IMG/VR virus record: IMGVR_UViG_3300012942_000093
Span: 1-34,797 of that record
Source: a virus
Lineage: Duplodnaviria; Caudoviricetes
Strand: one strand, 5' to 3'
DNA: 34,797 nt
Shown: positions 8,117 to 30,670 of the stretch, piece by piece
How the letters are laid out: the number at the start of each line of letters is the position of its first letter
How positions within the stretch are numbered: position 1 is the stretch's first letter
Position numbers and translations under genes: made by a program
The notes under the pieces: generated by a model
Databases searched by the model: none
What the model was told of the DNA's origin: nothing
What the model saw: the letters and a program-made list of their open reading frames with translations, nothing else

Positions 8117-8172
8117 TGCTACAATGCAATCATAAGGTAATAGAGCCGTACATCTTCGTGCGGCTTATTTTA
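8117..8172 (+). promoter_or_regulatory. late leader copy 1 (promoter plus AGCCG hairpin attenuator)
   Basis: TGcTACAAT-N6-ATAAGG-TAATAG-AGCCGTAC/GTGCGGCT-TATTTT. Confidence 0.85.
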
Positions 8173-8187
8173 TAGAGGAGAAAAGCT

Positions 8188-10374
8188 ATTAACCCCCAGC
8201 TCTTTGCGCAACCGCAATCTGACTACAACCTCGACGATCTTGCGAATAAGGATGGTGAGCTTTATCTTCTTCCTGCCGTAAGCCTCGATTTGCCAGATGA
8301 CTACATCATTAAAAACCTACACACAATCATTGAGGACTCTCGCGACTACTACAATGACATCAATCACTTTAACCTCAAGAACAAGCGGTTAAAGAACGCT
8401 CAGATGCTCCAGGGTGCACACCTTGAAGAGAACAAACTGTACCGTCACCAGACACCTTACATTGATAACGAGATATTTGTGGGTATGGATGCTATTCTCG
8501 CCTATGTATGTGCTCAGACTCCTAACGCAGAGGTCTATCCGGCATCAGATAAAGCAGACTCTATGGTACTCGCACGGAATCTAGAGAAATACCTGCACGC
8601 TCACTCTGAGAAGTTTGAGCTACCTCGTAAGCTTGAGGGTGCTGTCTATAATATGGTGGGTAAGTTCGTTGGATTGCTTAAACTTCGATGGGACCCGCTC
8701 TACGGACAGAATGGCGAGATTGTCCCAGAAGTAGTTGACCCTAACCATGTAATTATTGATAAGAACGCCAAGCTAGGTGAGAACCCACGCTTTATCTGTC
8801 ACGTGTTAAAAGACTCAGTTGAGGGGTTATGCGCTAAGTTCCCCGAGAAAGAACAGATAATCCTCGGCCACTTCTCTATCAAGCGCAAAGGCTCACGTAA
8901 CATGAGCGCTGAGGTAGCCTACCGAGAGGTTTGGTTTACCTACTACGATAATGACAACAAACCCCAAGAAGCTGTTGCGTGGTATGTAGACAACATCGTC
9001 CTAGATAAGTCCCCTAATATTAACTGGCTATACGGTGATGAGGGCGAGAACTTCCTCGACGCCCCTATGAAGCCATTTATCCCATTCAACCTTACTAATG
9101 ATGGGTCGCACTGGATTGACCGCACAAACGCATTGGAGCAGGCAATACCCCAGCAGGATATTCTTAATAAGCTGGGCCGCCAGCTACTAGACAACATCGG
9201 TACAGCTAACGGATTTAAGGTTATTGATTCACACGCAATGACTAAGGATGACGCACAGAACTTTACTGGTGACCCTAACCAGCTCCTATTAGTGAAGACA
9301 AAACCAAACCAACGCGTAACTGATGTCGTGGCGCAGCTTAACCCTCAGATGGTATCTGCACAGCTTATCGGTGAAGTAGCGAACGCTAAGCAGGCCGTCC
9401 ACAACATTCTTGGTACACCGTCACAGTTCACTGGCTCAGACGAGAACAAGACTGAAACCGCATCAGAAGCGATGATGATTAAAAACCAGGCCTCAGGCCG
9501 ACAGGATAAGATTGTACGCTCTGTAGACTACGGTATGGGTAAATATTTCCAGTTCCTCGCACAAATGATTACCGTCTGGTACACGGAAAAACATTACGTA
9601 ACAGTTAACGGTGGCGATGGTAGGTTTGATTTTATCGAAATGCACCGTGATAAAATCGAAAAAGGCATGATGGTCAAAGTCCAATCTGGTACCACTCTAC
9701 CATTCGATAAGAGCCGTCAAGAGTCTGTCGCAGTTAACCTCCTTAAGATAGGTGTCATCAGTCCGTACGATGGATATAAACTACTTCATATGGATGACCC
9801 GCAACAGCTTTACGATAACTTTATGAAGTGGAAGTCAGACCCAACCCAACTCGCTATGGACATTGCCACAAATGACGCAAATAGCGATGCAGTGGTAGAC
9901 TGGACGCAGTTAATGAACGGCCAAACGCCTGAGGATAGAGAAGACCCAACCCACGAATATATCGAGCAGATGCGTAAACTCCTTATCTCAGATGAGTTTA
10001 TGAAAGCTAAGCCAAAGATTCAGGGCATCACGATTAAGTTCATCAACAAGGCTATCGACAAGTTCCAACTACAACAGGAACTCCACCAAATGTCTCAAGC
10101 ACCTGAACAAGAGCGCCCGCTACCACCACAAGTCCTCGCCACTGGTGTCCAGCAAGTACAGCCTATGCAACCTCCTATGCCTATGGGTGCTCCGGCGGGA
10201 CAGCCAATGCCGCCTCAAGCCCCACAAATGGGTATGCCTCCTTCTCAATCTCCAATGCAGGCTATTATGCAACAGCCTACTGCAGCGCCAGGAGTTCCAC
10301 CAGTATCAGCTAATGGAGCGCCAGTACAACCTAATGTTAACCTAGGTAACCCAGCACAATTGCCACCAGTTTAA
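8188..10374 (+). CDS. portal protein (P22-like size, Pro/Gln/Met-rich tail)
   Basis: Position after terL and length; start extended to ATT 8188, 7 nt after GAGGAG and in frame with TTG 8290. Confidence 0.85.
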   Translation: MNPQLFAQPQSDYNLDDLANKDGELYLLPAVSLDLPDDYIIKNLHTIIEDSRDYYNDINHFNLKNKRLKNAQMLQGAHLEENKLYRHQTPYIDNEIFVGMDAILAYVCAQTPNAEVYPASDKADSMVLARNLEKYLHAHSEKFELPRKLEGAVYNMVGKFVGLLKLRWDPLYGQNGEIVPEVVDPNHVIIDKNAKLGENPRFICHVLKDSVEGLCAKFPEKEQIILGHFSIKRKGSRNMSAEVAYREVWFTYYDNDNKPQEAVAWYVDNIVLDKSPNINWLYGDEGENFLDAPMKPFIPFNLTNDGSHWIDRTNALEQAIPQQDILNKLGRQLLDNIGTANGFKVIDSHAMTKDDAQNFTGDPNQLLLVKTKPNQRVTDVVAQLNPQMVSAQLIGEVANAKQAVHNILGTPSQFTGSDENKTETASEAMMIKNQASGRQDKIVRSVDYGMGKYFQFLAQMITVWYTEKHYVTVNGGDGRFDFIEMHRDKIEKGMMVKVQSGTTLPFDKSRQESVAVNLLKIGVISPYDGYKLLHMDDPQQLYDNFMKWKSDPTQLAMDIATNDANSDAVVDWTQLMNGQTPEDREDPTHEYIEQMRKLLISDEFMKAKPKIQGITIKFINKAIDKFQLQQELHQMSQAPEQERPLPPQVLATGVQQVQPMQPPMPMGAPAGQPMPPQAPQMGMPPSQSPMQAIMQQPTAAPGVPPVSANGAPVQPNVNLGNPAQLPPV

Positions 10375-10389
10375 TAAGAAAGGAATCAA

Positions 10390-11331
10390 ATGGAAGAAGA
10401 AGTAAAGCCGATCGAAGAGGCCAAACCTGTAGAAGAAGAAAAAGGGTTTAAACTTAATCCAAACCGCCCTCTAAAGAACCAAGTTGATGCGCTTCTTAAA
10501 TCTCTACCAGAGGAGAAGACGGAAGAAACCGAAGAGGAGCCTAAAAAGGTAGAGGAAAAACCTGATACAGTCGAAGAAGTACCCGAAGAGATTGAACTAG
10601 AAGACCTCCCAGAAGAAACAAAGCTCGAACCGCTACCTGACTGGCAGAAGTACGTTCTAGACAACCTCCCTAGCATTCAAGTTATGGGCCATCAGGGTGA
10701 AGAGGGTAAGGATAAAGTATTCACTGTTAAGCGTCTTGAAGACTTACCAGACGACTTTGAATTTGCAAGCAAACGCGCGGAGCTAGCATTTAACTCGGCT
10801 ATCGCTTCACAAGAAGTGAACGCACGCGACCTATTATCTGAATACCGTGGTAAAGAGTCTCAGAGGGCACAAGCAGAGTTTGAGGCACTAGAAGCTGTAG
10901 ACATCCAGAATGATGTTAAGAGCCTCCAAAAAGCTGGTATTCTCCCTAAGTTTAAATATGAAGTGAACGACCCACGCTTTAATGAAGACCCTGCTGTTGA
11001 TGAATCAAACAAGATTTATGACTTCTATAAGAAAATCAACGACGATTACTTTAATAAGTACAATGGGTCAGGCCGTATGTACCGTGTATCGTATGAAGAT
11101 GCTGCTTACCGATACTACGCTCTTCATCCTAAAGAGGCTTCTAAGGAAGTAAAAGAAGCCATCAAAAAGGAAGAAGCTAAGCCTAAGAGTGAGAACCAAG
11201 AGAATCGCGAAAAGGTAGCCTCTAAGGTGAGTGCCCCACAAGGTGCCACACCTGAGGGTAAGTCTCGTCCATTGCCTCCTGGTACTGACTTGAACAGGGT
11301 TTATCAACTATATAAGATGGGAAGAATTTAA
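10390..11331 (+). CDS. capsid scaffolding protein (putative)
   Basis: Acidic, low-complexity, between portal and capsid. Confidence 0.7.
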   Translation: MEEEVKPIEEAKPVEEEKGFKLNPNRPLKNQVDALLKSLPEEKTEETEEEPKKVEEKPDTVEEVPEEIELEDLPEETKLEPLPDWQKYVLDNLPSIQVMGHQGEEGKDKVFTVKRLEDLPDDFEFASKRAELAFNSAIASQEVNARDLLSEYRGKESQRAQAEFEALEAVDIQNDVKSLQKAGILPKFKYEVNDPRFNEDPAVDESNKIYDFYKKINDDYFNKYNGSGRMYRVSYEDAAYRYYALHPKEASKEVKEAIKKEEAKPKSENQENREKVASKVSAPQGATPEGKSRPLPPGTDLNRVYQLYKMGRI

Positions 11332-11498
11332 TGGAAAACTACATCACACTACTAATCGCTACTTTGGAGCATTTAGAGCTCGTTACGGCTAAGGAAGCCG
11401 AGAAACTCAATAAGGAGCTACGCAATACTACACTACCTGCTTCATATAGGGAAACTAAAGACCTTGTCGAGAAAGTATTTGAAAAGGTTAAACTATAA
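11331..11498 (+). CDS. small hypothetical protein (55 aa, MENYITLL...)
   Basis: Not in the track; TAATG coupling. Confidence 0.65.
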   Translation: MENYITLLIATLEHLELVTAKEAEKLNKELRNTTLPASYRETKDLVEKVFEKVKL

Positions 11499-11503
11499 TA
11501 TAG

Positions 11504-11574
11504 TTGACGCAACTACCTCTCGATGTATAATGAGGGTATAAAGGTAAGAGAGCCGCAGGGCTCTCTTATTTTTT
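11504..11574 (+). promoter_or_regulatory. late leader copy 2
   Basis: TTGACG-16-TATAAT-N6-ATAAAGG; TAAGAGAGCC-gcag-GGCTCTCTTA-TTTTTT. Confidence 0.9.
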
Positions 11575-11607
11575 GTACTAAACTTAAGGAGCAATAAGGA
11601 ACAAAAT

Positions 11608-12696
11608 ATGGCTGGACAAATTTTCACCAACCGTGTGACTGATATTACTTATCAGTACATTTTGCCCGCGCTTGTAGACCAGGTGTCTAACTCCAACGTC
11701 TTCACAAGCAAAATTTTGTCAGAAACGTGTGACTGGGAGGGTGTTAGCTATAACGTTCCTATCCAGACAGCTTTCAGTACAACGGGCGGCTCATTTAACG
11801 GCATGGATACATTCTCTACTGCCGCAACAAACAACACTCGTCAGATGACGTTCTACTTGACTGGTCAATACCAATCAATCGTTATCCCTGGCATCGAAGC
11901 AGCAGTAAACGGTAACACTGAGTCTCAGGTCATTAAGTTGCTTACTGCTAAGATGGACGAAGCAAAAATCTCAATGGCTGACGCTATCGGTACCGAGCTT
12001 TACGGCTTTGGTCTTGGTAAAGCCTTTGACGGTCTCGGCAACGTAGTAGACAACGGTACAAACGCACCAACATACGGTGGTCTGAGCCGCACTACCTACC
12101 CGTTCCTTGACGCTGACGTTACAGCTGTAGCAAACGGTACAATCACACTTAGCTACCTATCAAGCGAATTTGATAACGTGAGCGCAGCAAGCTCTACCTC
12201 AGAGTCTCCAGACTACGGTCTCACAACCAAAGCTATCTGGACATACGTTGAGGGTCTTATCCAACCAATGCTTAGCGCTCGATATGAGAGCACAAGCATC
12301 CGTGGCTACAACCGCGTAGATGGAAAGACTCCACGCAGCACTGGCCCTAACACTGGTGCAGAACTAAGTGGTGCAGGTGGCTTCATCTCTATCACTTGGC
12401 GCGGTCGCGATATGTTCGCAGACGACAAAGCAACAGGTGGTACGTTCTTCTGGATTAACCAGAAGTACCTCGACTTCGCTGTACAGAAGAGTCCTGAACT
12501 TCGGGACATCGGCTCTACAGTTGAGAGTATGCAAGGTTTCTACGAAGATGTTCCGTTCCCATCAGCATTCCAATTCCGCGACATGATGAGCTCAATCAAC
12601 CAGCTCGGTCAGGTAGGTGTTGTGATTCTATTGGGCAACCTTATCTGCCGCCAGCCACGCCGTAACGGTAAACTAACTGGTATTACAGGAAACTAA
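11608..12696 (+). CDS. major capsid protein
   Basis: 362 aa after the scaffold, own promoter and strong SD; C-terminal GNLICRQPRRNGKLTGIT fits a capsid-protein ending. Confidence 0.85.
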   Translation: MAGQIFTNRVTDITYQYILPALVDQVSNSNVFTSKILSETCDWEGVSYNVPIQTAFSTTGGSFNGMDTFSTAATNNTRQMTFYLTGQYQSIVIPGIEAAVNGNTESQVIKLLTAKMDEAKISMADAIGTELYGFGLGKAFDGLGNVVDNGTNAPTYGGLSRTTYPFLDADVTAVANGTITLSYLSSEFDNVSAASSTSESPDYGLTTKAIWTYVEGLIQPMLSARYESTSIRGYNRVDGKTPRSTGPNTGAELSGAGGFISITWRGRDMFADDKATGGTFFWINQKYLDFAVQKSPELRDIGSTVESMQGFYEDVPFPSAFQFRDMMSSINQLGQVGVVILLGNLICRQPRRNGKLTGITGN

Positions 12697-12706
12697 GGAG
12701 AAATAT

Positions 12707-13459
12707 ATGCAAACAGGACCTCGCTATCTCACTAGCTCCGACCTCAACACGTTCAGCACAACCAAGCAAGACCAGCTTGGTGCAGAAGGTGTCACGGAAG
12801 ACGGAAGTAAGTTCCGTTACGTAAAGTTTGGTGGTACTTCAACCATCAAGGCTGGTCTACTTATGGTCGGTCCAGCTGCACCTGCAAACTCTACCGCACT
12901 AGCTATCACAGCAGTCGGCACAGGCGGTCAGACGACAGCTAACCTACAGGCAGGCTCACGCCAGCTCGTAGTAACAAATGGTGCCACCTCAGTAACGCAA
13001 GACCAGTTCCAGGAAGTTGTTATCAACTCTGCTGCCGATGGTTACTACAGCCTACGCGTAGAAGGTAACACCGCTGCTGGTAACGGCGGCTATGTAACTC
13101 TCTTACTCGCTGACCCAATCCCACAGGGTGCCACGCAACTTATCCCTGGTACTGACACGGTAGACCTCGTACTTTCAAAGTACAATGGTGTCGCACCTTC
13201 AACGACTGGTAACGCACCCGTTGGTGTTACGATTAACGCGGTACCTAACAGCTCAACAGTAACTAACTACGGTTGGGTACAGAGTAGTGGTCTCGCCAAG
13301 GTATCTGCCACGACTGCAACTATCGGTCTCGGTGTAGCGCAAGACCAGGCTGGTACAGCTGGTTATGTGATTATCTCAGCTGCGACAACCGGTAACCTAG
13401 ATTGGGCTAAGACTTCGGCAGCATCAAGCGCCGCTCTCGTAGACCTCAACATTAACTAG
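12707..13459 (+). CDS. capsid decoration/cement protein (putative)
   Basis: Follows the capsid gene; FRYVK and YGWVQ motifs; Ala/Gly/Thr rich. Confidence 0.6.
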   Translation: MQTGPRYLTSSDLNTFSTTKQDQLGAEGVTEDGSKFRYVKFGGTSTIKAGLLMVGPAAPANSTALAITAVGTGGQTTANLQAGSRQLVVTNGATSVTQDQFQEVVINSAADGYYSLRVEGNTAAGNGGYVTLLLADPIPQGATQLIPGTDTVDLVLSKYNGVAPSTTGNAPVGVTINAVPNSSTVTNYGWVQSSGLAKVSATTATIGLGVAQDQAGTAGYVIISAATTGNLDWAKTSAASSAALVDLNIN

Positions 13460-13467
13460 GAGATTCT

Positions 13468-13743
13468 ATGTCTACACAAGATTTAGGACAATACAATGCG
13501 GCAGTTCGACAGAATGGTGTACGACTCGGTGCAAATGAACCACTCGTGGTATCGGGCTCAACGACACTCCCAAGCGGGACACTCGTTGGTACAGCTGGTA
13601 TCTACAGCGGCGCAGGTGCTCCATCACTGAGTGCTCCGAAAGGCTCACTCTACACGAACACCACTGCATCGACTGCATCTACCCGAGTGTATGTAAATAC
13701 TGACGGTAGTACGACCTGGGCAAGCTTCACAGCTTCGGCCTAG
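13468..13743 (+). CDS. small virion protein
   Basis: AGGAG SD; GAP...GSLY...YVN...W module shared with 19527-20369. Confidence 0.7.
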   Translation: MSTQDLGQYNAAVRQNGVRLGANEPLVVSGSTTLPSGTLVGTAGIYSGAGAPSLSAPKGSLYTNTTASTASTRVYVNTDGSTTWASFTASA

Positions 13744-13761
13744 TAAAACAAACAAAAGTCT

Positions 13762-13790
13762 TAGCCTCAGAAATGGGGCTATTTCTTTTT
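13762..13790 (+). terminator. intrinsic terminator of the capsid operon
   Basis: TAGCCTC-agaaat-GGGGCTA-TTTCTTTTT. Confidence 0.8.
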
Positions 13791-13819
13791 CAATCAACCT
13801 ATGATAATATGCAGACAAT

Positions 13820-13999
13820 ATGGAACTCAAGCAACTCAACGATAAGAAGTCAGAGCTTGAAACTGCTTTTAATTCTCTAGAATCTGAGAAGCAGCAATTA
13901 AATAAACGTCTCAACGAAATCGCAACCGAGCAGGTTAAAACGCAGGGTGCGCATTCTTTAGTGGAAGAACTTATTAAAGACTTTAAGGAGAAGAAATAA
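13820..13999 (+). CDS. small coiled-coil protein (59 aa, MELKQLND...)
   Basis: Not in the track; TGaTATAAT at 13802-13810 lies 9 nt upstream; TAATG coupling. Confidence 0.7.
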   Translation: MELKQLNDKKSELETAFNSLESEKQQLNKRLNEIATEQVKTQGAHSLVEELIKDFKEKK

Positions 14000-14520
14000 T
14001 GGACAACGATTACTACGGTGCACCATCAAATACAGAGGTAAAACCAATTCGTGAACGCCTACGCGGCATGTACGAACCAGAAGACTTTGTAACCGTTATC
14101 AATGGCGACACTCACCCATTAACGTATCAGTTCGCGGCCCCTCAAGACCAAGAAACATACTCAGACTACCCAGGCCATAAGAATACTTTAATGAAGCGTC
14201 CACCACAGCGCATCACTCTCCAGCCTGGCGATACTAAGCTTGTCCCAGCATACGAAGCAGACCTTATGATTGAGGCAGGTATTAAGCAAATGGCTATGAG
14301 TAAACTACAGGAACGGGTTGACGGTGGGCTTGTTGATGCACGCCAGGCTTCAACTGACTGGACAGACCCATATTTCCAGGTGGAAGCTATTAAGAAGTTC
14401 TACGTAGGGAAAAAAGATATTCTCGCCGCTTACAACACTCAGCCAGTAGCTGATGTAGCAAAGGATTTAGAACTTGATGAGCCAAAGCGACCAATCGGCC
14501 GACCTCGCAAAGAAGTCTAG
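13999..14520 (+). CDS. hypothetical protein with C-terminal AT-hook-like motif
   Basis: Ends PKRPIGRPRKEV. Confidence 0.75.
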   Translation: MDNDYYGAPSNTEVKPIRERLRGMYEPEDFVTVINGDTHPLTYQFAAPQDQETYSDYPGHKNTLMKRPPQRITLQPGDTKLVPAYEADLMIEAGIKQMAMSKLQERVDGGLVDARQASTDWTDPYFQVEAIKKFYVGKKDILAAYNTQPVADVAKDLELDEPKRPIGRPRKEV

Positions 14521-15343
14521 AGAACTCGAAGAAAAGGAACGGGTACTTAATGCTCGTGAGAATATCTTAGAGCGCGAAAAAGCCATACAACAACGCCAAA
14601 AGGTGTTTGATGATGCTGAAACAAAACTCGAAGTACTCCGTAAACAAATCACTGCCCAGGAGGAGATTCTAGAGTCGCGTAAGATGGAGATAGAGAAATT
14701 TACGGATGATGCCAAAGAGAAACTCGATTCTTTCAAAGCTCAAGAATCCGTTGCTAGGCAAGCCACTAAAGCACAGGAAAATAAGCTATCTGACTTAAAG
14801 CGTAAAGAAGCTTTACTCGGTGCCTCTATTAAATCTAGAAACTCAGAACTATCCGACCTCAAAGCCCAGATTAAAGAGACAAAAAGTTATCGAGAAGAAC
14901 AAGAAAAGCTCTCAGAAACCACCATTAGTGAGTGGAATGTCACTTTACAGGAGTTTCGTAAAGAGGCAGATAACATTCAGCTTGATAAGAATAAACTCTC
15001 CGCAGATATTATCCGCCTTGAGCAAGAGAAGATAACCCTTTCGGAGGCCATTGCCCTTACTGAGGCCAAGTTTAACAACCTTGATGCTGGATATACCCAG
15101 AAAGTAGAGGAGTATAAAGACAAACTCCGCGAGTGGGACACTAAGGTTAATGAAAAACGCAATGAGTTTGATAGTCTCGTCTCCTCTATTGATATGAAGA
15201 AGCTAGAAATATCTACGCGCGAAAAGTCGGTGAGGCTTAAAGAGAATGACCTTAACCGTCGTTCTCTTGAGCTAGACCAGAAAGACCGGCGTCTTAGGGG
15301 TGCGTACGGTATGGCTGGAATTGGTTACGAGAATGACGTATAA
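14477..15343 (+). CDS. long coiled-coil protein
   Basis: E/K/L/R heptad-rich throughout. Confidence 0.75.
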   Translation: MSQSDQSADLAKKSRELEEKERVLNARENILEREKAIQQRQKVFDDAETKLEVLRKQITAQEEILESRKMEIEKFTDDAKEKLDSFKAQESVARQATKAQENKLSDLKRKEALLGASIKSRNSELSDLKAQIKETKSYREEQEKLSETTISEWNVTLQEFRKEADNIQLDKNKLSADIIRLEQEKITLSEAIALTEAKFNNLDAGYTQKVEEYKDKLREWDTKVNEKRNEFDSLVSSIDMKKLEISTREKSVRLKENDLNRRSLELDQKDRRLRGAYGMAGIGYENDV

Positions 15344-15383
15344 TACCCTCATAAGGTAAGAGCCGTCAGGGGCTCTTTTTATT
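15339..15383 (+). promoter_or_regulatory. late leader copy 3
   Basis: TATAAT-N6-ATAAGG-T; AAGAGCC-gtcagg-GGCTCTT-TTTATT. Confidence 0.88.
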
Positions 15384-15395
15384 AGGAGAATTGTC

Positions 15396-16010
15396 ATAGC
15401 TAACTGGACTAACGCGCCACAACCATTCGGACCTAATCACGCTCCACTCCTCGAGGGACTCTCTTCTGTTGATGGCGACACCCCCGTACCTGTAGCCGTT
15501 AACCCAGTAGATGGTTCGATACTAGTCTCTGCCGTTAGCGGAGGGAACACCCAGTATACAGAGGGTGCGACCACCTCTCCAGCTATAGGAACCGTAGCAT
15601 TAGGAAGGTATCTTGCTGCCCCTCCAGGAACTCTAGCGGATGGAGCCCTATCCGCTCCTCTCATGGATAATTATGGCCAGCTGAAAGTCGTTCCTGTAGG
15701 AACGGTTACGGTCTCAGGAAGTGTCGCCATATCATCCTCTGTTGGTACAGCCAACTTCGCCACAGGACAGGTCGCACTCGCAAGCACTGCCACTCAGATT
15801 GTTGCCAGTAGGGCGACTCGGCGCTCAGTAACTATAGTTAACCTAAGTACCACTGACATGTACATAGGCGCTTCAGGCGTCACCACAAGTACAGGACAGT
15901 TACTCCTCGGTGTTAAGGGAGCAGCTATTACTATGGAGGTTGTAGGGGCTGTATATGGAATTGTTGCAACTGGCACTCCATCAGTGAGCTTTGAAGAGGA
16001 ATATGCATAA
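15396..16010 (+). CDS. virion structural protein with probable ATA start
   Basis: AGGAG-7 nt-ATA GCT AAC TGG; 89 open codons in frame with ATG 15663. Confidence 0.7.
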   Translation: MANWTNAPQPFGPNHAPLLEGLSSVDGDTPVPVAVNPVDGSILVSAVSGGNTQYTEGATTSPAIGTVALGRYLAAPPGTLADGALSAPLMDNYGQLKVVPVGTVTVSGSVAISSSVGTANFATGQVALASTATQIVASRATRRSVTIVNLSTTDMYIGASGVTTSTGQLLLGVKGAAITMEVVGAVYGIVATGTPSVSFEEEYA

Positions 16011-17194: not shown

Positions 17195-17195
17195 T

Positions 17196-18881: not shown

Positions 18882-18927
18882 TATAATTACCTTATAAGGC
18901 TCCAGCCGCTACTGGAGCTATTTTATT
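18882..18927 (+). promoter_or_regulatory. late leader copy 4
   Basis: TATAAT-N6-ATAAGG; GCTCCAG-ccgcta-CTGGAGC-TATTTTATT. Confidence 0.85.
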
Positions 18928-23327: not shown

Positions 23328-23335
23328 GAGAGTAT

Positions 23336-23665
23336 ATGTACCAAGATGGCGGATTTGAATCACAAGTATCGGCAAATGCCCCCAACGCGAGCATGATGAT
23401 GATGGCGTACTCCTCAACCTTTGGGAACGCTAATTTTCAGATAATGCCCGCATCTCAAGGAGAGATACAAGAAGGATTTGTTACTGTTCCTTACTTGTCC
23501 TTAGAGGCACTTCTTTATAACGGCCAAATGTCCAATCAAACTGTTGCCCCTCGACAGATTCAGACAGGTTCAACAGCTGGTACGCAAAACTTACAAGGTG
23601 GCACAACGGTTACTGACTCGCAAGGTAACATTCGTGTCTCGATAGGCACAACTGGTGGCTTCTAA
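23336..23665 (+). CDS. hypothetical virion protein
   Basis: AGGAG SD, in the tail cluster. Confidence 0.65.
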   Translation: MYQDGGFESQVSANAPNASMMMMAYSSTFGNANFQIMPASQGEIQEGFVTVPYLSLEALLYNGQMSNQTVAPRQIQTGSTAGTQNLQGGTTVTDSQGNIRVSIGTTGGF

Positions 23666-24512
23666 CTCTGCAGGTATACGAGTTACTCAGATTGGGGTAA
23701 GCGACCCTTTCGCTGCTGATTACCAGTATGTATTTAACTCAGACTGGCCGTCTTTAGCTATTGCATACGAAGCAGTTGTACAAGTCCCCTATACCGACGG
23801 ACTATCAGTGAGTGCAACGGTTACTCATGGATTAAAGTTTTATCCCCTCACTATGGGGTGGACTATACTGAATGGAGTGAGTATCGGTAGGACCTTCGCC
23901 ACATCTGGTAACCTTTCGAGTGCCCAGAATGATGTTACATTTTCATTCGATAATGATAAGATATATTTTGTTAACCATGGAACTTATAACGCTATAACCT
24001 ATACGATAAGTATAAAATGCTATAACGTGGATATTTCGCAGGGTATAGATTATACGTTGCCTAGATTCCCAACCGTTTCCACACCGTACGACCCCACCAC
24101 GGGTATAAAAGTGTCTAAATCCCAGAAAAGCATCGCTTCAAATGACTTGAGAGACTTTATTCTTCACTCCCGGGCACAATCACCCGCCGTGCTTTCTATC
24201 GTCACTAACGTCTCTACAACCCCATCAGGAGTTAAATATATTGGATATAATAACCCCGCTAACTATACGCCGTGGGTATTAGCATTTGCTGGTGGTCCAG
24301 GACAAGGAACTACATACATGCCAGTCGCGCCTGGTACTCAACAGAACGGATACATATTTGCTATTCAAAGTGCGACACAGGCTAAATCGTCAGGCTTCAC
24401 ACAAGCACGTATTCAGGCATCGTTTCTGGCTAATCCTAATAATAACTTTGGTAGTTTAGTGGTTCTCAGGGACCCACTCGTAGTGCCAAATACTTTAAGG
24501 GTAGTTTACTAA
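23655..24512 (+). CDS. tail-associated protein with internal duplication
   Basis: GIRVTQIG...YVFNS and GIKVSKSQ...FILHS repeats. Confidence 0.65.
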   Translation: MASNSAGIRVTQIGVSDPFAADYQYVFNSDWPSLAIAYEAVVQVPYTDGLSVSATVTHGLKFYPLTMGWTILNGVSIGRTFATSGNLSSAQNDVTFSFDNDKIYFVNHGTYNAITYTISIKCYNVDISQGIDYTLPRFPTVSTPYDPTTGIKVSKSQKSIASNDLRDFILHSRAQSPAVLSIVTNVSTTPSGVKYIGYNNPANYTPWVLAFAGGPGQGTTYMPVAPGTQQNGYIFAIQSATQAKSSGFTQARIQASFLANPNNNFGSLVVLRDPLVVPNTLRVVY

Positions 24513-25030
24513 TGCGCAGCGATCTTGGCCCTATATCTGTGTCTGCTCCTAATACTTCTCTCACGACAGCAGAGGGGCAGCATTTAACATTTAACACCCG
24601 CTATCCTTTTGCTAAGCTGGACTCTACTAATAAAAATAGTTTCCAGATTATTACTGTGTTCTTTAACACTGAACCGCCTAACCCCACAGGGGGCCCAGGA
24701 ACAACGACAACAAAGAAAACTCTCATTTACCAATACAAGCACGGATATACATATGAACCGTCTGCCTGGTTTCTTCTGTCTACAGACAATTTTGTTACTG
24801 TTCTAGGCTCTGAGGGGTCCTGGCTACTAGGTAATGCAACTGGTACATCTGACCGCATTGCAAAATTTGAAGTAGAAGTAGATAGCACCTATGTGAATTT
24901 CTACATAGACAAGCAATGGACAAATACAGGAAGCAACTCGCCTCCTAATATTATTGGGTTCAGCGTTAATGTACGTGCGTATATATTCGTCGAAGGCCTG
25001 GACGGGACGTCGGTGCCATCTCAGGGTTGA
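24512..25030 (+). CDS. tail-associated protein
   Basis: ISVSAP...LTFNT start resembles the repeat in the upstream gene; HGYTYEP. Confidence 0.65.
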   Translation: MRSDLGPISVSAPNTSLTTAEGQHLTFNTRYPFAKLDSTNKNSFQIITVFFNTEPPNPTGGPGTTTTKKTLIYQYKHGYTYEPSAWFLLSTDNFVTVLGSEGSWLLGNATGTSDRIAKFEVEVDSTYVNFYIDKQWTNTGSNSPPNIIGFSVNVRAYIFVEGLDGTSVPSQG

Positions 25031-25044
25031 TTTGTTTTGTTTTA

Positions 25045-25092
25045 TGATACAATGATTGTATAAGGTAAAGAGCCGCACGAAGCGGTTTTTTT
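25045..25092 (+). promoter_or_regulatory. late leader copy 5
   Basis: TGaTACAAT-N6-ATAAGG-TAAAG; AGCCGC-acgaa-GCGGTT-TTTTT. Confidence 0.88.
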
Positions 25093-25101
25093 GTTTGTAA
25101 A

Positions 25102-25977
25102 ATGCCATTATCAACAGCCGATATAGACCAAATGCAATCGAAACAGTATCAGCAAGATACTGCTCTTCAAAATTTCTATAACCAAAACGCTACTAACGCC
25201 ACCAACCAATATAACACTGCGTATAATGCCTCAAACCAGGCACAAGGCGACCTCTCTAAATTCACGAAGAACATGGTTAGTGGCAACGATGCTTACCAGA
25301 AGCAGCTTCAACTCGCCAACCAGAACGCGGGTTATGATGTTAATAATCTCAATCAGGCACAGAATCAGGTATCACAGCTCACGGGTATACTTGGCGGTCT
25401 TCCTCGCGCTATTCAGGCGTCTAACGCTAACTATGGTGCGACCGCAGGTAACGTGGCGAACCAATATGCCACTACGGGAGCTAACTTAAACCAATCTCTC
25501 CAACTTGCTAACCAGAACGCTCAGAATCAGTTAGCTAAGCAGCAAGGTGGACTCACAGGGGCTCAACAGGGTACGCAGGCCGTCTTGCAGGCACAAGACC
25601 AACAGAGGCAGGCATACACGGCAACTGCTAATAACGCCGCACAAGTTATGGCTACAGCGCAGCAACAAATGCAGGCGATGGTTGCAGCACAACAACAGGG
25701 TCAGCAGCTCACAGCTAACGACCAAGCGACATTCGGTCAATTACGACAGGCATACGCAGCTGCAGCGGCCTCATATGCTCAAGCGAACCTACTTGCTAAG
25801 CAAGCCGAGGCAGCAGATCTTGCGAATCAGCAGACCAGAGATCTTATGTCTCAGGGAACCAATAATAATGTTGACAATGGTTCAGGAAATTATACATCGC
25901 AGTACGGAAACTACGCGCCAGGTGTAAGTAAAGTAACTCAGAAGAATGGAAATATCTTCTACACCCCTAACTTTTAA
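25102..25977 (+). CDS. internal virion/DNA ejection protein (putative)
   Basis: Gln/Ala/Asn-rich helical protein after the tail genes. Confidence 0.55.
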   Translation: MPLSTADIDQMQSKQYQQDTALQNFYNQNATNATNQYNTAYNASNQAQGDLSKFTKNMVSGNDAYQKQLQLANQNAGYDVNNLNQAQNQVSQLTGILGGLPRAIQASNANYGATAGNVANQYATTGANLNQSLQLANQNAQNQLAKQQGGLTGAQQGTQAVLQAQDQQRQAYTATANNAAQVMATAQQQMQAMVAAQQQGQQLTANDQATFGQLRQAYAAAAASYAQANLLAKQAEAADLANQQTRDLMSQGTNNNVDNGSGNYTSQYGNYAPGVSKVTQKNGNIFYTPNF

Positions 25978-25985
25978 GGAATGAA

Positions 25986-27845
25986 ATGAACCCCAACGAC
26001 CCAAACTCTATATCTAGCTATCAGGACTTATCGCAAGTTAACAACACCCCTAGCGGGCCTAATAAGCCAGGTGATTTTTGGTCAACGGTCGGTGGTATAG
26101 CTTTACCTGTGCTTGGTGCACTCCTAGCGCCAGAAACGGGAGGGGCATCCTTACTCGCTAGCACCGCCCTATCTGGGCTAGGTAGTGCTGCAGGTAAGGC
26201 GGTGGATGAGGGTGTATCTGGTGGAGAGTCATCACCTGGAGATATTCTTAGCGCTGGTCTTACGGGAGCTGCTGGAAACCTAGCAGGTGGAGCACTAGTA
26301 AAGGGAGCTGGAAAAGTCCTTAAGGGTGTGGTTAAGCCAGCTGCAGATAAGGCAGCAACATCGCTTGTTCAAGGCCAGGGACAAGGCGCACTAGATAAAG
26401 CAACGTCCGATTACCTTTATAAGAATGGCGTTACCGACCTAAGACAAATGGGTGATATTCATCCTATTGTCACAGGGGAAGGCGGCGCTTTGAATAACGC
26501 AGTAAACAACTCCTTGCTTAACGCGGCTGATGAGGGAGCGCGACTCGACCTTAGTAGCCTTGCTCCCGTTGGGAAAGGTGCACCGGGCAATACTGTACTC
26601 AATGCTGTGCGCGAGGCGGGAATCGCGGGTGATTCTAACTCAGTGAAAGGTGTACAAGAGTTTATTCAAGGGCAACTCGAAAAGTATAATCCTGATGCGA
26701 TTAAAAGCGTAGCGCCGAAGAGAGGAGGAGGCGTTGTAAACAGTTTTGATAATGGTGTTCTTAACGCGCAACATCCTCTCGACGCATTAAATATGACTAA
26801 AGCTATGGATAGTCGGGCAGCAGCATGGCTAAAATCTTCGTCTCCTAACATCCAAGCTCAAGGAAAAGCACTACGGAACGTATCGAACACTATTAAGGAC
26901 AATCTCTATGGTGAGAGGACCTCTATCGGTCAGACTGGCATCACTGACCAAGTACGAAAAACTGCTATAGATGAACTCGCACCCCTTAAAGATATAAATC
27001 CTACTTACTATGAAGCGAAAGTTAATGAACTGAATGGTGCTAAAACTATTGGCGAACTCCGCACTGCTCAAAAGCCAGAGGTAATTGCTAACCAGGCATT
27101 AGAGTTCGCTCAGAATAAAGCCAATACAACAGGTGGTACTAACTTACCTGAACTATTCAAGGTTGGGGCACCTGTAGCTGGTATGTCTGTTGGTGGTCCT
27201 GCTGGCCTAGCCGCAGGTATGATCGCACCTAAAGTTCTCGGCTCAAATGCTGCTAACGTAGCAGGTGCCGGTACGCTCGCTAAGCTATCTAAGACTATCG
27301 GTAATGAGAAAGCACAGAAAGTTATGGACACACTCGGACGAGCTGGAGGTGTTCTAGCAGCTAATGCTCCTAATATGGGTGCTGCACCAGTAGAAAGCTT
27401 ACCTAACACATCTTTACAAGGAGAAACTATGAACGGAGGTCAACCCCAGAATCAGAATACTATCAATGCTCTCTTGCAGACCATGTTAACTCATCCATCC
27501 ATATATGGTGGCCAAATGGGCGGAGTGTTATCCTCTATCGCACCTCAGCTTCAAAGTAACGCTATACTACAAGGTGAAATCGGCGCACTACCTGGTGGCA
27601 TAGCCAATGCTGGTGGCGCACAAGGCCTAGGTGGTATCGGTAGTGTTATATCCGGCCTCGTACCAGGAACCGCTGCGAACGCCTACCGAGGTCAACAAGC
27701 GGCTGTTGCAGCTCAGCTTGCTAAGACTCTCGGCATTTCTCCTGAGGCGGCACAGCAACTTCTTCCTAGTCTTCTGCAAAACGAACAAACTGCCGGAATG
27801 CGGCAGAATGTTCTTGGTGGTATCGCTGGGGCTTTGCCTAGCTAA
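25986..27845 (+). CDS. internal virion/DNA ejection protein (putative)
   Basis: Gly/Ala-rich hydrophobic segments (LAPETGGASL, GGPAGLAAG). Confidence 0.6.
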   Translation: MNPNDPNSISSYQDLSQVNNTPSGPNKPGDFWSTVGGIALPVLGALLAPETGGASLLASTALSGLGSAAGKAVDEGVSGGESSPGDILSAGLTGAAGNLAGGALVKGAGKVLKGVVKPAADKAATSLVQGQGQGALDKATSDYLYKNGVTDLRQMGDIHPIVTGEGGALNNAVNNSLLNAADEGARLDLSSLAPVGKGAPGNTVLNAVREAGIAGDSNSVKGVQEFIQGQLEKYNPDAIKSVAPKRGGGVVNSFDNGVLNAQHPLDALNMTKAMDSRAAAWLKSSSPNIQAQGKALRNVSNTIKDNLYGERTSIGQTGITDQVRKTAIDELAPLKDINPTYYEAKVNELNGAKTIGELRTAQKPEVIANQALEFAQNKANTTGGTNLPELFKVGAPVAGMSVGGPAGLAAGMIAPKVLGSNAANVAGAGTLAKLSKTIGNEKAQKVMDTLGRAGGVLAANAPNMGAAPVESLPNTSLQGETMNGGQPQNQNTINALLQTMLTHPSIYGGQMGGVLSSIAPQLQSNAILQGEIGALPGGIANAGGAQGLGGIGSVISGLVPGTAANAYRGQQAAVAAQLAKTLGISPEAAQQLLPSLLQNEQTAGMRQNVLGGIAGALPS

Positions 27846-28086
27846 GCTTCTTAATGGTCAGTTCTCTATCTGGAGACTTAAGGTCAATGCTAAATTCAAG
27901 TTCATCGTCTAGCGAGTAGCCTAACTTTACGGCTACCTGCTTTATATATTCGGTTTTTAGCTGATTAAACCAGTAGTCACTACCTCTTTGTACATTGTCT
28001 AGGTTTGTGAGGTATTGGAAGTCCACGTCATCAATAGTATACTTTTTCTCTACTTCTTCGATTTGTTTTTTAATCTTTTGGCTCAT
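27838..28086 (-). CDS. hypothetical protein
   Basis: Last gene of the inverted operon; AAGGAGG SD. Confidence 0.7.
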   Translation of the reverse strand: MSQKIKKQIEEVEKKYTIDDVDFQYLTNLDNVQRGSDYWFNQLKTEYIKQVAVKLGYSLDDELEFSIDLKSPDRELTIKKLS

Positions 28087-28327
28087 AGTCCTCCTTCTTA
28101 ATGATTTTTATACCGCGGAATGTAATTTCACCGAGCATATGATATGGAGATGATAACATTTTTGATACCTCTTTTTTAAGCCTTTTATATGTGGCATCGG
28201 TAACCACTATAATATCTGGACGCGAAGATAATTTACCGGCCACTGTTCTATCATCTATCTCTTTGCTTATATATTTTGATACAGGAGACGGTATATCTTC
28301 TGAAAACATAAGAATAAGTTGACTCAT
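28070..28327 (-). CDS. hypothetical protein
   Basis: ATGA coupling. Confidence 0.65.
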   Translation of the reverse strand: MSQLILMFSEDIPSPVSKYISKEIDDRTVAGKLSSRPDIIVVTDATYKRLKKEVSKMLSSPYHMLGEITFRGIKIIKKEDYEPKD

Positions 28328-28572
28328 AATTCTCTCTCAATCCTTTTAATTACATCTTCGCTAAAATACTTTTTGGATTCCTCAGGGTAGTTTTTAATAA
28401 ACTCTGGGTTCGCCTTACTATCTTTATAGGGTTGGATAATCTCTTTAGAGAATTGTTTGCGTTCCATATCGTGACGCCATTCCTTATGGGTTGGGTTTAC
28501 ATCAAAACCCATTGGTTTATCCTCCCCACGGTGGTACTTTCCATCAGAGCCAATATATCCTGTTGAGGTCAT
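28324..28572 (-). CDS. hypothetical protein
   Basis: ATGA coupling. Confidence 0.7.
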   Translation of the reverse strand: MTSTGYIGSDGKYHRGEDKPMGFDVNPTHKEWRHDMERKQFSKEIIQPYKDSKANPEFIKNYPEESKKYFSEDVIKRIEREL

Positions 28573-28808
28573 ATATTCCTAATCCTTGCCTGTTCCTCAC
28601 GTTCTATCTGGTCAGGAGTTTTAGGGGACACGATGTATGATTGTTCAGTAACATCAGCATACCCAGGACGGAGAGGAGTTATTACTCTAGCCTCTGGTTC
28701 GGGGTCGCGATTCCATATATTTCTCGCTAACTCTAGTATACGGTGCAAGTACAGACCGATGTGTACACCTGTCGAAAGTCCAATTAAAATTCCCACTATA
28801 AGTTCCAT
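28569..28808 (-). CDS. small protein with N-terminal membrane anchor
   Basis: Start revised to ATG 28808 (MELIVGILIGL), just after the groEL stop, with AAGGAG SD. Confidence 0.7.
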   Translation of the reverse strand: MELIVGILIGLSTGVHIGLYLHRILELARNIWNRDPEPEARVITPLRPGYADVTEQSYIVSPKTPDQIEREEQARIRNI

Positions 28809-28809
28809 A

Positions 28810-30333
28810 CTACTCCTTGTCTGGGTCTGGTAGTGCGGCACTTGCCGTAATGAGGCCCCTTACTAGTGCAATAGCGTTTGTCGCTACTTCTGAAATGACT
28901 AATGATGGGTCAATGACGCCTTCTTCTAGCATATCTACAGGTTTGTCTGTGATGTTGCGGAGGTTGAAACCTTGCCATACGTCTGCCTCTTCTAGTTTAG
29001 CAAGGTAAGATTCTGGATTAAGACCGGCGTTATCGAAGAGTGCCTTAAATGGTTGTTTAAATGCCTCATCAAACTCAGTGCCTTTTACTCGGGCGAGCGT
29101 AGAACCACCACCTGGTAGGATTCCGTCTTTCATCGCGCTCTGAACTGCACAAACGGCATCTTGAACACGCAATTTAGTCTCTTCGCGCTCAAATTCAATC
29201 GCACCACCCACGCGGATGATAGCCATTTTACCCGTGAGACGTGCGAGGCGTTCCTTGATGAACTGGATGGATTGCGGATGCTCTTCTTCTGCGAGTTGCT
29301 TCCTGAGGCTCTCGATACGCTCCTTTACCTCTTTATCATCGCTATCGCCTTGTAAGATGGTAGTTGAGTGTTCAGTGACAAGGACTTCACTAGCAAACCC
29401 TAAGTGTGCTTCAGGAGAGAAGTTTACACCATCATATACAGTCGCACCTGTCTTGAGTGCAATGTCATCGAGGAAGAGTGTACGACCACCTACGGTATAT
29501 GGAGGGTCGATAGGGACAGCTAGAAGAAGACCTTTCGCGCGGGTCATTACAAGAGTTTCAAGGGCTGCATTATTGACTTCGCCAACAATAACAAGTTCTT
29601 TTATACCTTTCCTCACAATACTATTAAGGAGTTCGCCAATTTCAACTTCTGTATTAAAAGCCTTGTTAGATACGAGGATAGCCACATCTTTATGAAGAGA
29701 CTGATTTGAAGATTGGTCGTTAATGAGTGCAGTATCTTTATATCCTCTAGGAAAATAGAAGCCATCTACGATGTCGTTGTGGACACCGAGACCCTCGTAC
29801 TGTTCAATCATCACACCACCATCTACCCCAACTTCTTGGAGGACATCTGAAATCATCGCTCCTAGCTCAGGGTCGCCCGCAGAAACCGTGGCGACTTTTT
29901 GTAAGTCTTCCTCGGTGGTTTTCTTTTTAATAGAGTCGATGTATTCGAGTACTTTCTTTTCGGCTTGTCGGAGTTTCTCTGAAACCTCCATAGGATTTAC
30001 ACCCTTACTCTCAAGCTTTCGAGCAGCCTGTAAGAGGTGGTGTGAGAGAATAACGACTGCGGTTGTTCCATCGCCTACCTTTTGGTTGTTCTTTTCAGAA
30101 GCTTCTACGATTACTTTCGCAATGTCATCCTCGATTGCATCGGCGAGTTTGATACGCTTAATGTTCGTTACGCCATCCCTTGAGAGAAGTGGTGCGCCCG
30201 ATTTAAACCCTACGATAACATTACCAGCCTTTGGCCCATAAGCGGCTTTAGCTACTTTATATACTTGCTCGCTAGCACTAGCAGTCTTATTCTGTAGTAC
30301 GTCTCTGTCAGTTACGATGTCCGTTGCTTTCAT
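28810..30333 (-). CDS. groEL: chaperonin GroEL (Cpn60), divergent phage-encoded
   Basis: YGPK, DGVT, GDGTT, ERLARL, IRVGG, RVQDA, GILPGGG, GVIDP. Confidence 0.95.
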   Translation of the reverse strand: MKATDIVTDRDVLQNKTASASEQVYKVAKAAYGPKAGNVIVGFKSGAPLLSRDGVTNIKRIKLADAIEDDIAKVIVEASEKNNQKVGDGTTAVVILSHHLLQAARKLESKGVNPMEVSEKLRQAEKKVLEYIDSIKKKTTEEDLQKVATVSAGDPELGAMISDVLQEVGVDGGVMIEQYEGLGVHNDIVDGFYFPRGYKDTALINDQSSNQSLHKDVAILVSNKAFNTEVEIGELLNSIVRKGIKELVIVGEVNNAALETLVMTRAKGLLLAVPIDPPYTVGGRTLFLDDIALKTGATVYDGVNFSPEAHLGFASEVLVTEHSTTILQGDSDDKEVKERIESLRKQLAEEEHPQSIQFIKERLARLTGKMAIIRVGGAIEFEREETKLRVQDAVCAVQSAMKDGILPGGGSTLARVKGTEFDEAFKQPFKALFDNAGLNPESYLAKLEEADVWQGFNLRNITDKPVDMLEEGVIDPSLVISEVATNAIALVRGLITASAALPDPDKE

Positions 30334-30608
30334 TCTTCTGAAGTCCCATCTATATCATTTATTAAAATAAGTGCTAGTTTCTCTCCAGTAGGAAGAACGC
30401 CAACTCTTAGGTCATCCTTGTATAGTTTCCAGTAACCTATTTTTCCTACAAGATACCCATACGAATCTTTATCTTTTTCATTGACTGATAGTATCGTACC
30501 GCTCGTTACACTATCATAAGTTTTCTCTGGCACTGGAATAGCGCCATATTCAGAAGTTTCGAGTCTGACGAGCACACGTCCTTCTTGGGGTTCGATCACT
30601 CTTTGCAT
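30330..30608 (-). CDS. groES: co-chaperonin GroES-like (Cpn10)
   Basis: IEPQEGRVLVR...IPVPE...SGTILSV...LILINDIDG mirrors the GroES layout; ATGA-coupled to groEL. Confidence 0.8.
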   Translation of the reverse strand: MQRVIEPQEGRVLVRLETSEYGAIPVPEKTYDSVTSGTILSVNEKDKDSYGYLVGKIGYWKLYKDDLRVGVLPTGEKLALILINDIDGTSEE

Positions 30609-30670
30609 ACCTCGCACTATACTATATAATCACCTTATAAGGCAACAGCCGCGTCAGTGCGGTTGTTTTT
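30603..30670 (+). promoter_or_regulatory. late leader copy 6
   Basis: TTGCAT-16-TATAAT-N6-ATAAGG-C; AACAGCCGC-gtcagt-GCGGTTGTT-TTT. Confidence 0.88.

Follow-up and report, generated by a model that had tools for sequence, protein, structure and literature searches.

The window analysed here is a 34,797-nt stretch of phage DNA (IMGVR_UViG_3300012942_000093; all positions are plus-strand coordinates of the window) that carries six short leaders and a small zinc-ribbon gene (Table 1). A preliminary description of this DNA had reported six −10 boxes, each followed by exactly 6 nt and ATAAGG (ATAAAGG in copy 2) and then by AGCCG in a hairpin with a T tract; all of these elements were found in 6/6 copies at the positions listed. 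Its gene labels stand for the portal, capsid, tail-fibre/structural and endolysin genes, which have PHROG hits, whereas the 'ejection genes' have none. The 'lysis operon' assigned to copy 6 does contain an endolysin gene, but four genes on; its first gene encodes a 64-aa basic protein.

Table 1. Six leader copies and the zinc-ribbon gene in the window; +1 positions, terminators and protein function are predictions.
Feature	Position	Strand	Promoter	GGY, loop, GCC	AGCCG	Terminator	Context
Zinc-ribbon gene	7896..8114	+					72 aa, CCCC, between terL and portal; candidate RNA-binding antiterminator, Com-like
Copy 1	8120..8173	+	−10 8120-25; +1 ~8132	GGT 8136, AATAGA, GCC 8145	8144	stem 8144-8165; T tract 8166-73	5′ of portal (ATT start 8188)
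Copy 2	11504..11574	+	−35 TTGACG 11504; −10 11526; +1 ~11538	GGT 11543, AAGAGA, GCC 11552	11551	long stem; T tract 11566-74	5′ of major capsid
Copy 3	15339..15383	+	−10 15339	GGT 15355, AAGA, GCC 15362	15361	T tract 15376-83	5′ of 204-aa gene (ATA start 15396) and fibre cluster
Copy 4	18882..18927	+	−10 18882	GGC 18898, TCCA, GCC 18905	18904	T tract 18919-27	5′ of gene 18937 and tail/structural cluster
Copy 5	25048..25096	+	−10 25048	GGT 25064, AAAGA, GCC 25072	25071	T tract 25086-96, reaching start codon	5′ of gene 25102; Shine-Dalgarno absent
Copy 6	30625..30670	+	−10 30625	GGC 30641, AACA, GCC 30648	30647	T tract 30663-70	5′ of ATG 30684 (64-aa basic protein) and endolysin operon; groES-groEL lies back to back

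Three independent patterns each matched exactly these six sites on the plus strand, with no match (two patterns) or one match on the minus strand; the six copies are the sole leaders of this type in the window. The motif is far from equally common at random positions: TAYAAT-N6-ATAA was observed 6 times, compared with a mean of 0.3 (maximum 3) on both strands of 200 dinucleotide shuffles, and a looser −10..AGGY..AGCC pattern, which misses copy 2 by its gap limit, was observed 5 times versus a mean of 0.055 (maximum 2) in dinucleotide shuffles. TAYAAT hexamers number 39 on the plus strand, 33 of them without the motif. The promoters had been called host-type; a clear −35 element is present only in copy 2 (16-nt spacer). 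An N4-type DNA hairpin promoter was ruled out, as the hairpin lies 3′ of the −10 box and no large virion polymerase gene is present.

Analysis of the leader RNAs added a new element: the two conserved halves are predicted to pair with each other (GGY with GCC) in a 3-bp hairpin, and in 6/6 copies this is the fold of lowest energy for the nascent RNA (first ~18 nt). In the predicted folds, this mini-hairpin overlaps and excludes the terminator stem in all six window copies and in 121/121 exact leaders, with predicted energies of −2 to −4 kcal/mol for the mini-hairpin and −11 to −21 kcal/mol for the terminator. The preliminary description had held AGCCG to be conserved as sequence, since part of it falls in the terminator loop, and the loop positions are as described: the loop holds the G of copies 2 and 3 and the CCG of copy 4. 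In 32/121 exact leaders the terminator fold leaves all or part of AGCC unpaired, so terminator pairing alone does not explain its conservation.

The preliminary description had proposed a search of related phages, and such a search recovered the leader type family-wide. Hairpin/T-tract sites in related phage loci were collected without reference to the motif, those with a −10 box 24–56 nt upstream were classed as promoter-linked and identical leaders were collapsed; a generic promoter-terminator scan was too loose (1165 matches) and gave way to stricter ones. AGGY..AGCC was present in 92/134 promoter-linked late-strand sites, compared with 3/40 promoterless terminators and 1/62 sites on the other strand; AGCC by itself was found in 14 of the 40 promoterless terminators. 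Exact GGY..GCC occurred in 100/134 promoter-linked sites (64 GGC and 36 GGT), the two variants placing C-G or U.G opposite the same G. The loops of these mini-hairpins span 3–13 nt and their final base is A in 96/100; such variable half-site spacing argues for recognition as RNA and not as duplex DNA. The base after GCC was C in 54, G in 33, A in 11 and T in 2 of the 100 leaders. Only AGGY and AGCC are thus kept family-wide, and the ATA and the final G of AGCCG, which the preliminary description had included among the conserved words, are clade traits. Of 70 distinct capsid leaders identified solely by position, 67 have a T tract immediately after the stem, and stem and tract resemble the ordinary terminators of the family. 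Capsid and portal leaders within one genome have a similarity of 0.87 (13 loci), whereas orthologous leaders of the two main clades reach 0.64. For the most distant capsid, that of L002, the search returned no relatives.

The host of the phage is likely among the ultra-small Saccharibacteria. In 401 genomes of the putative host phylum the pattern was not enriched, and of the matches examined 1/26 had both hairpin and T tract. The element is therefore a phage signal, and a host-type signal was ruled out. The preliminary description had not recognised it as a named element; Rfam gave no match at the gathering score and, at E ≤ 1, one chance match (IRES_Bip, E 0.13) on the minus strand in a coding region, and literature searches did not find the leader element.

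Base-pair changes across the family support a paired element. As MAFFT loses the register of the six copies, leaders were aligned by their two half-sites in scripts; the alignment holds 213 of 266 leaders, the 53 with more than two mismatches being left out and identical leaders collapsed. It contains six double-sided Watson-Crick changes versus 1.56 expected (p 0.003, 5000 shuffles that ignore relatedness), which touch all three pairs; one belongs to an unrelated hairpin and a single phage accounts for three, which leaves about three events. Whole sub-lineages have a broken outer pair (A.C in 6 and G.G in 5 of 160 leaders), and three leaders have A.G at the inner pair. On another reading, no trans factor is involved and strong constitutive promoters are damped by leaky terminators, whose strength the competing mini-hairpin tunes, to set gene dosage and end upstream read-through. 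Such a reading fits the imperfect T tracts of some leaders, the frequency of AGCC in ordinary terminators and the premature terminators that are common directly after phage promoters (PMC10914365). It leaves unaccounted for the fixed loop A, the sequence-specific pairs, the concerted variants within each genome and the loss of the zinc-ribbon gene together with the terminator, described below, and the mini-hairpin could hardly compete unaided with a terminator of the predicted stability; we regard it as quite improbable.

The zinc ribbon encoded at 7896-8114 is the best candidate for a trans-acting factor. Its family has four invariant cysteines, and its distribution follows that of the capsid-leader terminator: among near-complete relatives, 26 have both gene and terminator, 5 have neither and none has only one of the two. 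All five gene-less relatives carry a small HTH gene. The co-loss amounts to 1–3 independent events on the capsid tree, so a Fisher p of the co-distribution is not valid as a test. In a blind gene-content screen of 13 attenuator-positive and 7 negative genomes, the zinc ribbon ranked first (11/13 versus 1/7); of the two misses, one has a divergent copy and the other a C-terminal remnant at the edge of a contig. No other gene family spanned both attenuator-bearing clades. The HTH gene was found in 6/7 terminator-less and 0/13 attenuator-positive genomes, and in 7 loci of terminator-less lineages a site near the −35 region of the capsid promoter is conserved, which would fit a replacement of late control by the HTH gene and this upstream site. 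Two loci depart from the pattern: L155 (86% complete) keeps a divergent zinc-ribbon gene and lacks the attenuator, and L159 has neither terminator nor gene but retains the mini-hairpin sequence. Three terminator-less genomes have single near-matches, one in an ordinary terminator stem and two with weak context. For the co-distribution, L150, L157 and L166 were searched in part, and in one profile search for the gene most positives, L055 and L058 excepted, were already in the query alignment.

A further reading is that the attenuators are opened by another factor, such as an antiterminator loaded on DNA in the manner of Q, a host protein or a small RNA of the phage, and that the zinc ribbon is unrelated and serves, for example, in packaging. 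Its gene does sit in the terminase-portal block, L155 lacks attenuators although it has the gene, TAAGGT is similar to a −10-like pause element and ~5 kb of the genome is absent from the window. Yet one clade has moved the gene away from terL, with its own promoter, and only the zinc-ribbon family spans both attenuator-bearing clades. No Q, sigma or regulator hit was obtained among the 52 window proteins and the 27 private to the closest complete relative, and neither PHROG nor Pfam gave a hit to a Q-family gene, whether in the window or among the genes private to G406. A Q-like DNA element with a pause was ruled out, as the six −35/−10 spacers share no element and TAnnnT occurs in only 36/160 leaders; the window holds no antisense match outside the elements, and the signal is not enriched in putative host genomes. 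We consider this alternative unlikely.

The zinc-ribbon family bears a modest likeness to Com of phage Mu, a translational activator with its site in the com-mom mRNA, a hairpin closed by G-C and C-G with CC(N)2-3GAG in the loop, which ends in GA, and a −2.4 kcal/mol fold (PMC6483171). HHalign of the family profile against a five-sequence Com alignment gave a probability of 96% and a score of 42.9; against Mu Com the score was 35.7, and Cys-preserving shuffles reached at most 19.5. Controls with Ogr, DksA and HNH gave about 1% probability, and E. coli MsrB scored 82%/33.2 against the same profile. In Pfam, the window protein had no hit to PF10122 (Zn_ribbon_Com); the best family member reached 14.9 bits against a gathering cut-off of 22.9, 3/42 members matched at E ≤ 0.1, and on a Com model the window protein scored 0.4 bits. 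A PDB sequence search returned MsrB and eS27 (E 0.007-0.04), an NCBIfam search nothing decisive and the ESM Atlas only unnamed clusters. Two AlphaFold models had pLDDT values of 65 and 63, and Foldseek of the latter, low-confidence model against viral and PDB libraries found no match at E ≤ 0.001. On the RNA side, loops end in GA in 4/6 window copies and 50/160 leaders; a closing Y-G pair is general, C..GA loops occur in five aligned leaders from three phages, and the L032 capsid leader has 12 bases identical to the positional Com site of phage Chuche. Com-like protein and Com-like loop do not co-occur in the same phage (L031, 27.8 bits; L032, 3.5 bits).

The precedent of Com (PMC6483171) speaks for a role after transcription, in which the zinc ribbon binds the 5′ hairpin but affects the translation or stability of the mRNA; the large hairpin with its U tract would then be a 5′-UTR structure and translational enhancer and not an effective terminator. 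The leaders are 45–70 nt long and end in a ribosome site, the T tract of copy 5 abuts an ATG that has no Shine-Dalgarno sequence, a weak hairpin is predicted over the Shine-Dalgarno sequence of copy 6, the portal and copy-3 genes have ATT and ATA starts and L159 has a mini-hairpin but no terminator. Against this, the large hairpins hold neither Shine-Dalgarno sequence nor start codon in 6/6 predicted folds, unlike the translation inhibition structure of Mu, and the T tract follows the stem in the capsid leaders as in ordinary terminators, which makes a post-transcriptional role unlikely. Several leader T tracts are interrupted; with the layout of copy 5, this suggests that the tract may also serve translation.

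We propose that the six leaders probably act as protein-stabilised antiterminators overlapping intrinsic terminators, with the logic of BglG and its RAT site and a Com-like factor. We infer start sites, termination, binding and the direction and timing of the switch as follows. A predicted sigma-70 promoter would start each leader RNA, the first ~18 nt of which would fold into the weak GGY/GCC hairpin. The Com-like zinc-ribbon protein would likely bind this hairpin and so block the overlapping predicted terminator, allowing host RNA polymerase to continue into the late genes; in the absence of the protein the stronger terminator would prevail, with release of 35-45-nt RNAs. The core of the preliminary description, an attenuator opened by a trans factor, thereby gains comparative support from the family-wide motif, its association with promoter-linked and not with ordinary terminators and the joint loss of terminator and candidate factor, although the recognised element is most likely a GGY/GCC hairpin and not two single-stranded words, AUAAGG and AGCCG. 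The zinc-ribbon gene is apparently read from an unattenuated promoter, so the antitermination model does not account for the source of the delay.

If correct, this model would supply a late-control mechanism for a large family of phages, probably of Patescibacteria, without a recognisable sigma factor, Q or activator, and give a function to orphan Com-like zinc ribbons. More tentatively, Com-type zinc ribbons in general might be late-gene antiterminators, the translational use in Mu being a special case. On that broader view they would form a class of late control distinct from sigma factors, DNA-binding activators and Q, in which a ~70-residue RNA-binding protein acting on a 3-bp hairpin in the first 20 nt opens all late promoters together, and which would be evolutionarily interchangeable with an HTH activator. 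The parts are tiny (a 72-aa protein, a 40-nt leader and a sigma-70 promoter), which opens the model to direct tests in E. coli or in vitro; if it holds, the element would also make a transcription switch of very small size that is potentially orthogonal. Specificity could be swapped by means of the natural variants, which change in concert, and the natural replacement of attenuator and zinc ribbon by HTH gene and upstream site would give a rare view of late-control exchange.

Among known systems, proteins of the BglG/SacY/LicT type stabilise a weak RAT hairpin overlapping an intrinsic terminator at its 5′ arm. The leaders described here would share this arrangement in a short leader, with site-specific and not processive action, but differ in that the hairpin has 3 bp compared with a ~30-nt RAT (no Rfam match), the proteins scanned gave no CAT/PRD domain hit, no PTS signal is involved and the controlled genes are viral late genes with several copies of the element. 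In lambda Q/pR′/tR′, a constitutive host-type promoter produces a short terminated leader and a phage protein licenses the late genes; Q binds promoter DNA, needs a −10-like pause and modifies polymerase processively at one promoter. BrrG, a Q21-like protein of the Bartonella GTA, likewise binds promoter DNA and acts processively, in a pause-dependent manner, at one promoter (10.1101/2024.11.20.624540). A host-type promoter, a short terminated leader RNA and a licensing phage protein are common to these systems and, as predicted, to ours, which differs in having a conserved predicted RNA fold at six promoters, no Q gene and no shared promoter-DNA element. Six Pseudomonas phages have 42 premature terminators in 5′UTRs, directly 3′ of promoters and giving rise to both short and long transcripts; one lies before the major head gene of YuA. 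These phages are unrelated, and the available text assigns no factor, motif or mechanism (PMC10914365). Mu Com is, like the candidate here, a small CCCC zinc ribbon, with the layout C-x2-C-x2-LF..IE-x-C-x2-C in both; its target, a weak hairpin whose loop ends in (G)A and which overlaps and excludes a larger inhibitory hairpin, resembles the predicted mini-hairpin. The window family has an added N-terminal strand, and its Cys pairs are ~19 residues further apart. Com acts at one site in its own mRNA before the methylase, opening a structure that hides the start codon of the overlapping methylase gene, whereas the zinc ribbon here would act in trans at up to six sites 5′ of virion and lysis genes, where the excluded structure is a predicted terminator and not a translation block.

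The six leaders are real and family-wide. On re-inspection of the window, all six matched the preliminary description exactly, with a -10 box, six nucleotides, ATAAGG (ATAAAGG in copy 2), a hairpin containing AGCCG and a T tract. The motif is far commoner than chance would give: its -10/ATAA part occurs six times versus 0.3 per shuffled genome and a looser full pattern five times versus 0.055 (200 shuffles), and the window holds no further promoter-hairpin-T-tract site with the motif. A search of Rfam returned no match for the leaders.

Some 110 related capsid loci were collected for comparison. In a survey that chose capsid-upstream regions by position alone, a hairpin and T tract lay behind a -35/-10 promoter in 67 of the 70 distinct sequences of the first set; the exceptions were TM7 phage DolZOral124_53_65 and two loci whose T tracts are shorter. 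The AGGY..AGCC motif belongs to promoter-linked sites: in a motif-blind survey of intergenic hairpin/T-tract sites in related phage loci, it was present at 92 of 134 late-strand sites with an upstream -10 box, 3 of 40 without one and 1 of 62 opposite-strand sites. Whole genomes of the two main clades carry 4-6 copies, and those of the L033 clade a single copy, upstream of the capsid gene. In the putative host phylum, none of 401 genomes held the pattern more than five times, a frequency within the range of a reversed-pattern control, and a hairpin with a T tract accompanied 1 of 26 matches examined. L004, a 98%-identical relative with an inserted HNH gene, carries a seventh copy there. Terminators with unrelated stems in the L033 clade conserve a long C-rich loop, absent from the window; one lies directly 5′ of the leaderless zinc-ribbon gene.

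The two words of the preliminary description are complementary, GGY to GCC, and are most likely the pairing halves of one small hairpin rather than separate words. The exact triplet pair is present in 100 of the 134 promoter-linked leaders (GGC in 64, GGT in 36, against the same G), with loops of 3-13 nt whose last base is A in 96 of these 100. For the first ~18 nt of each of the six window copies, the predicted structure of lowest energy is this 3-bp mini-hairpin (-2.0 to -4.0 kcal/mol); the predicted terminators of these copies reach -11 to -21 kcal/mol. In every one of the 121 exact leaders the two folds are mutually exclusive, both where the terminator stem is short and begins at AGCC and where it is long and begins at AAGG; AGCC is partly unpaired within the terminator in 32 of the 121. 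In the covariation set (266 leaders, 213 of them aligned at no more than two mismatches), the 213 gave six double-sided Watson-Crick changes, at all three pairs, versus 1.56 in shuffles that ignore kinship (p 0.003). Because of that kinship, and because one change lies in an unrelated hairpin, three come from a single phage and two sub-lineages have outer bases that do not pair (A.C in 6 and G.G in 5 of 160), these changes back the pairing only moderately. Leaders are more alike between paralogues within a genome (0.87, 13 loci) than between orthologues of different clades (0.64), as expected if one phage-encoded reader served all copies; leaky terminators working without any factor seem very unlikely to us.

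The candidate reader is a 72-aa CCCC zinc ribbon, whose gene ends six bases upstream of leader copy 1. All 15 near-complete records of a first set, and 11 of the 16 in a second, have exactly one copy of the gene; its relatives form about 50 clusters among 1.84 billion representatives, and the 401 putative host genomes gave only three marginal matches. When all gene families were screened blind, the gene ranked first, being found in 11 of 13 attenuator-positive versus 1 of 7 negative genomes; of the two positives missed, one has a divergent copy and one a C-terminal remnant at a contig edge. No other family in the screen occurred in both positive clades and was missing from the negatives, and we regard another factor opening the attenuators as quite unlikely. 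Of the records with a completeness of 90% or more, both the gene and a capsid-leader terminator are present in 26, neither in five and only one of the two in none; the remnant and divergent-gene cases, counted apart, both have terminators. Two less complete records comprise one without gene and terminator and one (L155) with a divergent gene and no attenuators, and L159 retains the mini-hairpin sequence, its terminator and zinc-ribbon gene being lost. As the capsid tree implies only 1-3 loss events, this co-distribution is suggestive, not statistical proof. In genome G459 (L160, L192-L194), six leaders share a concerted variant with loop end C instead of A, the zinc-ribbon gene is left only as a C-terminal piece at a contig edge beside an HNH-like start, and terL appears to bear an intein.

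We file the zinc ribbon as working like Com, the RNA-binding zinc ribbon of phage Mu, not as a Com member. Its family profile aligned with Mu Com at 92.9%, across the two Cys pairs and with an insertion of 19 residues. Against an alignment of five Com members it reached 96% (score 42.9); shuffles that preserve the Cys residues scored at most 19.5, Ogr, DksA and HNH proteins gave about 1%, and MsrB reached 82% (score 33.2). No family member was above the cut-off of the Pfam Com model, the protein encoded in the window ranks with the least Com-like ones, and predicted folds were uninformative. Independently of the protein comparison, the leader RNA resembles the Com site, described as a short C-G-closed hairpin with loop CC(N)2-3GAG that adjoins and overlaps a structure destabilised by Com (PMC6483171); the computed fold of the Mu site is -2.4 kcal/mol. 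Loops end in GA in 4 of 6 window copies and only 50 of 160 leaders, three relatives have C..GA loops, and 12 bases of the L032 capsid leader are identical to the correspondingly placed site in the Com-bearing phage Chuche, a site predicted only by position. Across relatives, Com-like proteins and Com-like loops did not coincide.

We favour, as the probable mechanism, attenuation operated by the zinc ribbon, which would hold the mini-hairpin and so block the overlapping terminator. Judging from the -10 spacing, host polymerase would start at about the A of ATAAGG, and the mini-hairpin would fold before the terminator. With the protein bound, the terminator's 5′ arm would be unavailable and polymerase would cross the U tract; otherwise the terminator would form and release a 35-45-nt RNA. 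That the same protein acts post-transcriptionally instead is unlikely. Transcription of the zinc-ribbon gene appears to come from a promoter without an attenuator: in the window the gene would be read together with terS-terL, and in the L033 clade from a leaderless promoter of its own. A delay would then come from build-up of the zinc ribbon or from some other control, not found in this analysis.

Lineages lacking the terminators may use another activator. A small HTH-like gene, with weak Pfam HTH matches, is present in 6 of 7 attenuator-negative genomes and in L157 versus 0 of 13 positives, and an A-rich/T-rich inverted site is conserved near the -35 position of the capsid promoter, which lacks TTGACA, at seven loci; the gene may encode a different late activator, with the site as its target.

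The window covers 34.8 kb of a tailed-phage genome, with terminase, portal, capsid, tail/fibre and endolysin genes and groES-groEL on the opposite strand. The host is likely to belong to Saccharibacteria/Patescibacteria, because the closest annotated relative, TM7 phage DolZOral124_53_65 (capsid identity 52%), has candidate division TM7 as recorded host and another capsid relative sits in a 0.9-Mb assembled genome, of a phylum with genomes of 0.4-2.1 Mb. Two further capsid matches, in bins named Prevotella and Eubacteriales, were taken for binned phage contigs. groEL was found in all 20 genomes screened. In relatives, the start codons of the portal gene and the gene after copy 3 switch among ATG, ATT, ATC and ATA.

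Coordinates of features in the window and in related records
Feature	Record	Position	Strand	Remarks
ORF	window	5-877		run of VRDQ repeats; DUF6745 match E 2e-8, above cut-off
Portal start	window	8188		ATT; good Shine-Dalgarno upstream
Start of gene after copy 3	window	15396		ATA; good Shine-Dalgarno upstream
groES-groEL	window	28810-30617	minus	phage-encoded; promoter region back to back with leader copy 6
Non-coding region, 750 bases	window	33440-34200		divergent -10 boxes (33797 +, 33898 -, 33767 -); inverted repeat spans 33797 box; 11-mer repeated near 33810 and 33869; several hairpin/T-tract sites; may be an origin, an operator region or a source of small RNAs
Seventh leader copy	L004	8793-8840		compensated (GGA/TCC); heads gene after capsid
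HTH-like gene, 53-72 aa	L001	18285-18506	minus	also L153, L155-L158, G458; usually directly after capsid gene
C-rich-loop terminator	L088	1400-1480
C-rich-loop terminator	L200	11300-11370
C-rich-loop terminator	L148	16152
C-rich-loop terminator	L154	8439

A literature search with limited coverage of subscription papers found no description of the leader element or of Com-type antitermination, and motif tables in supplements could still hold one. Among known antitermination systems, BglG/RAT attenuation has the same logic as the proposed leader switch and lambda Q the same purpose. Premature 5′UTR terminators are documented in Pseudomonas phages, in an account naming no factor (PMC10914365), and BrrG (10.1101/2024.11.20.624540) may be set beside lambda Q for its like purpose.
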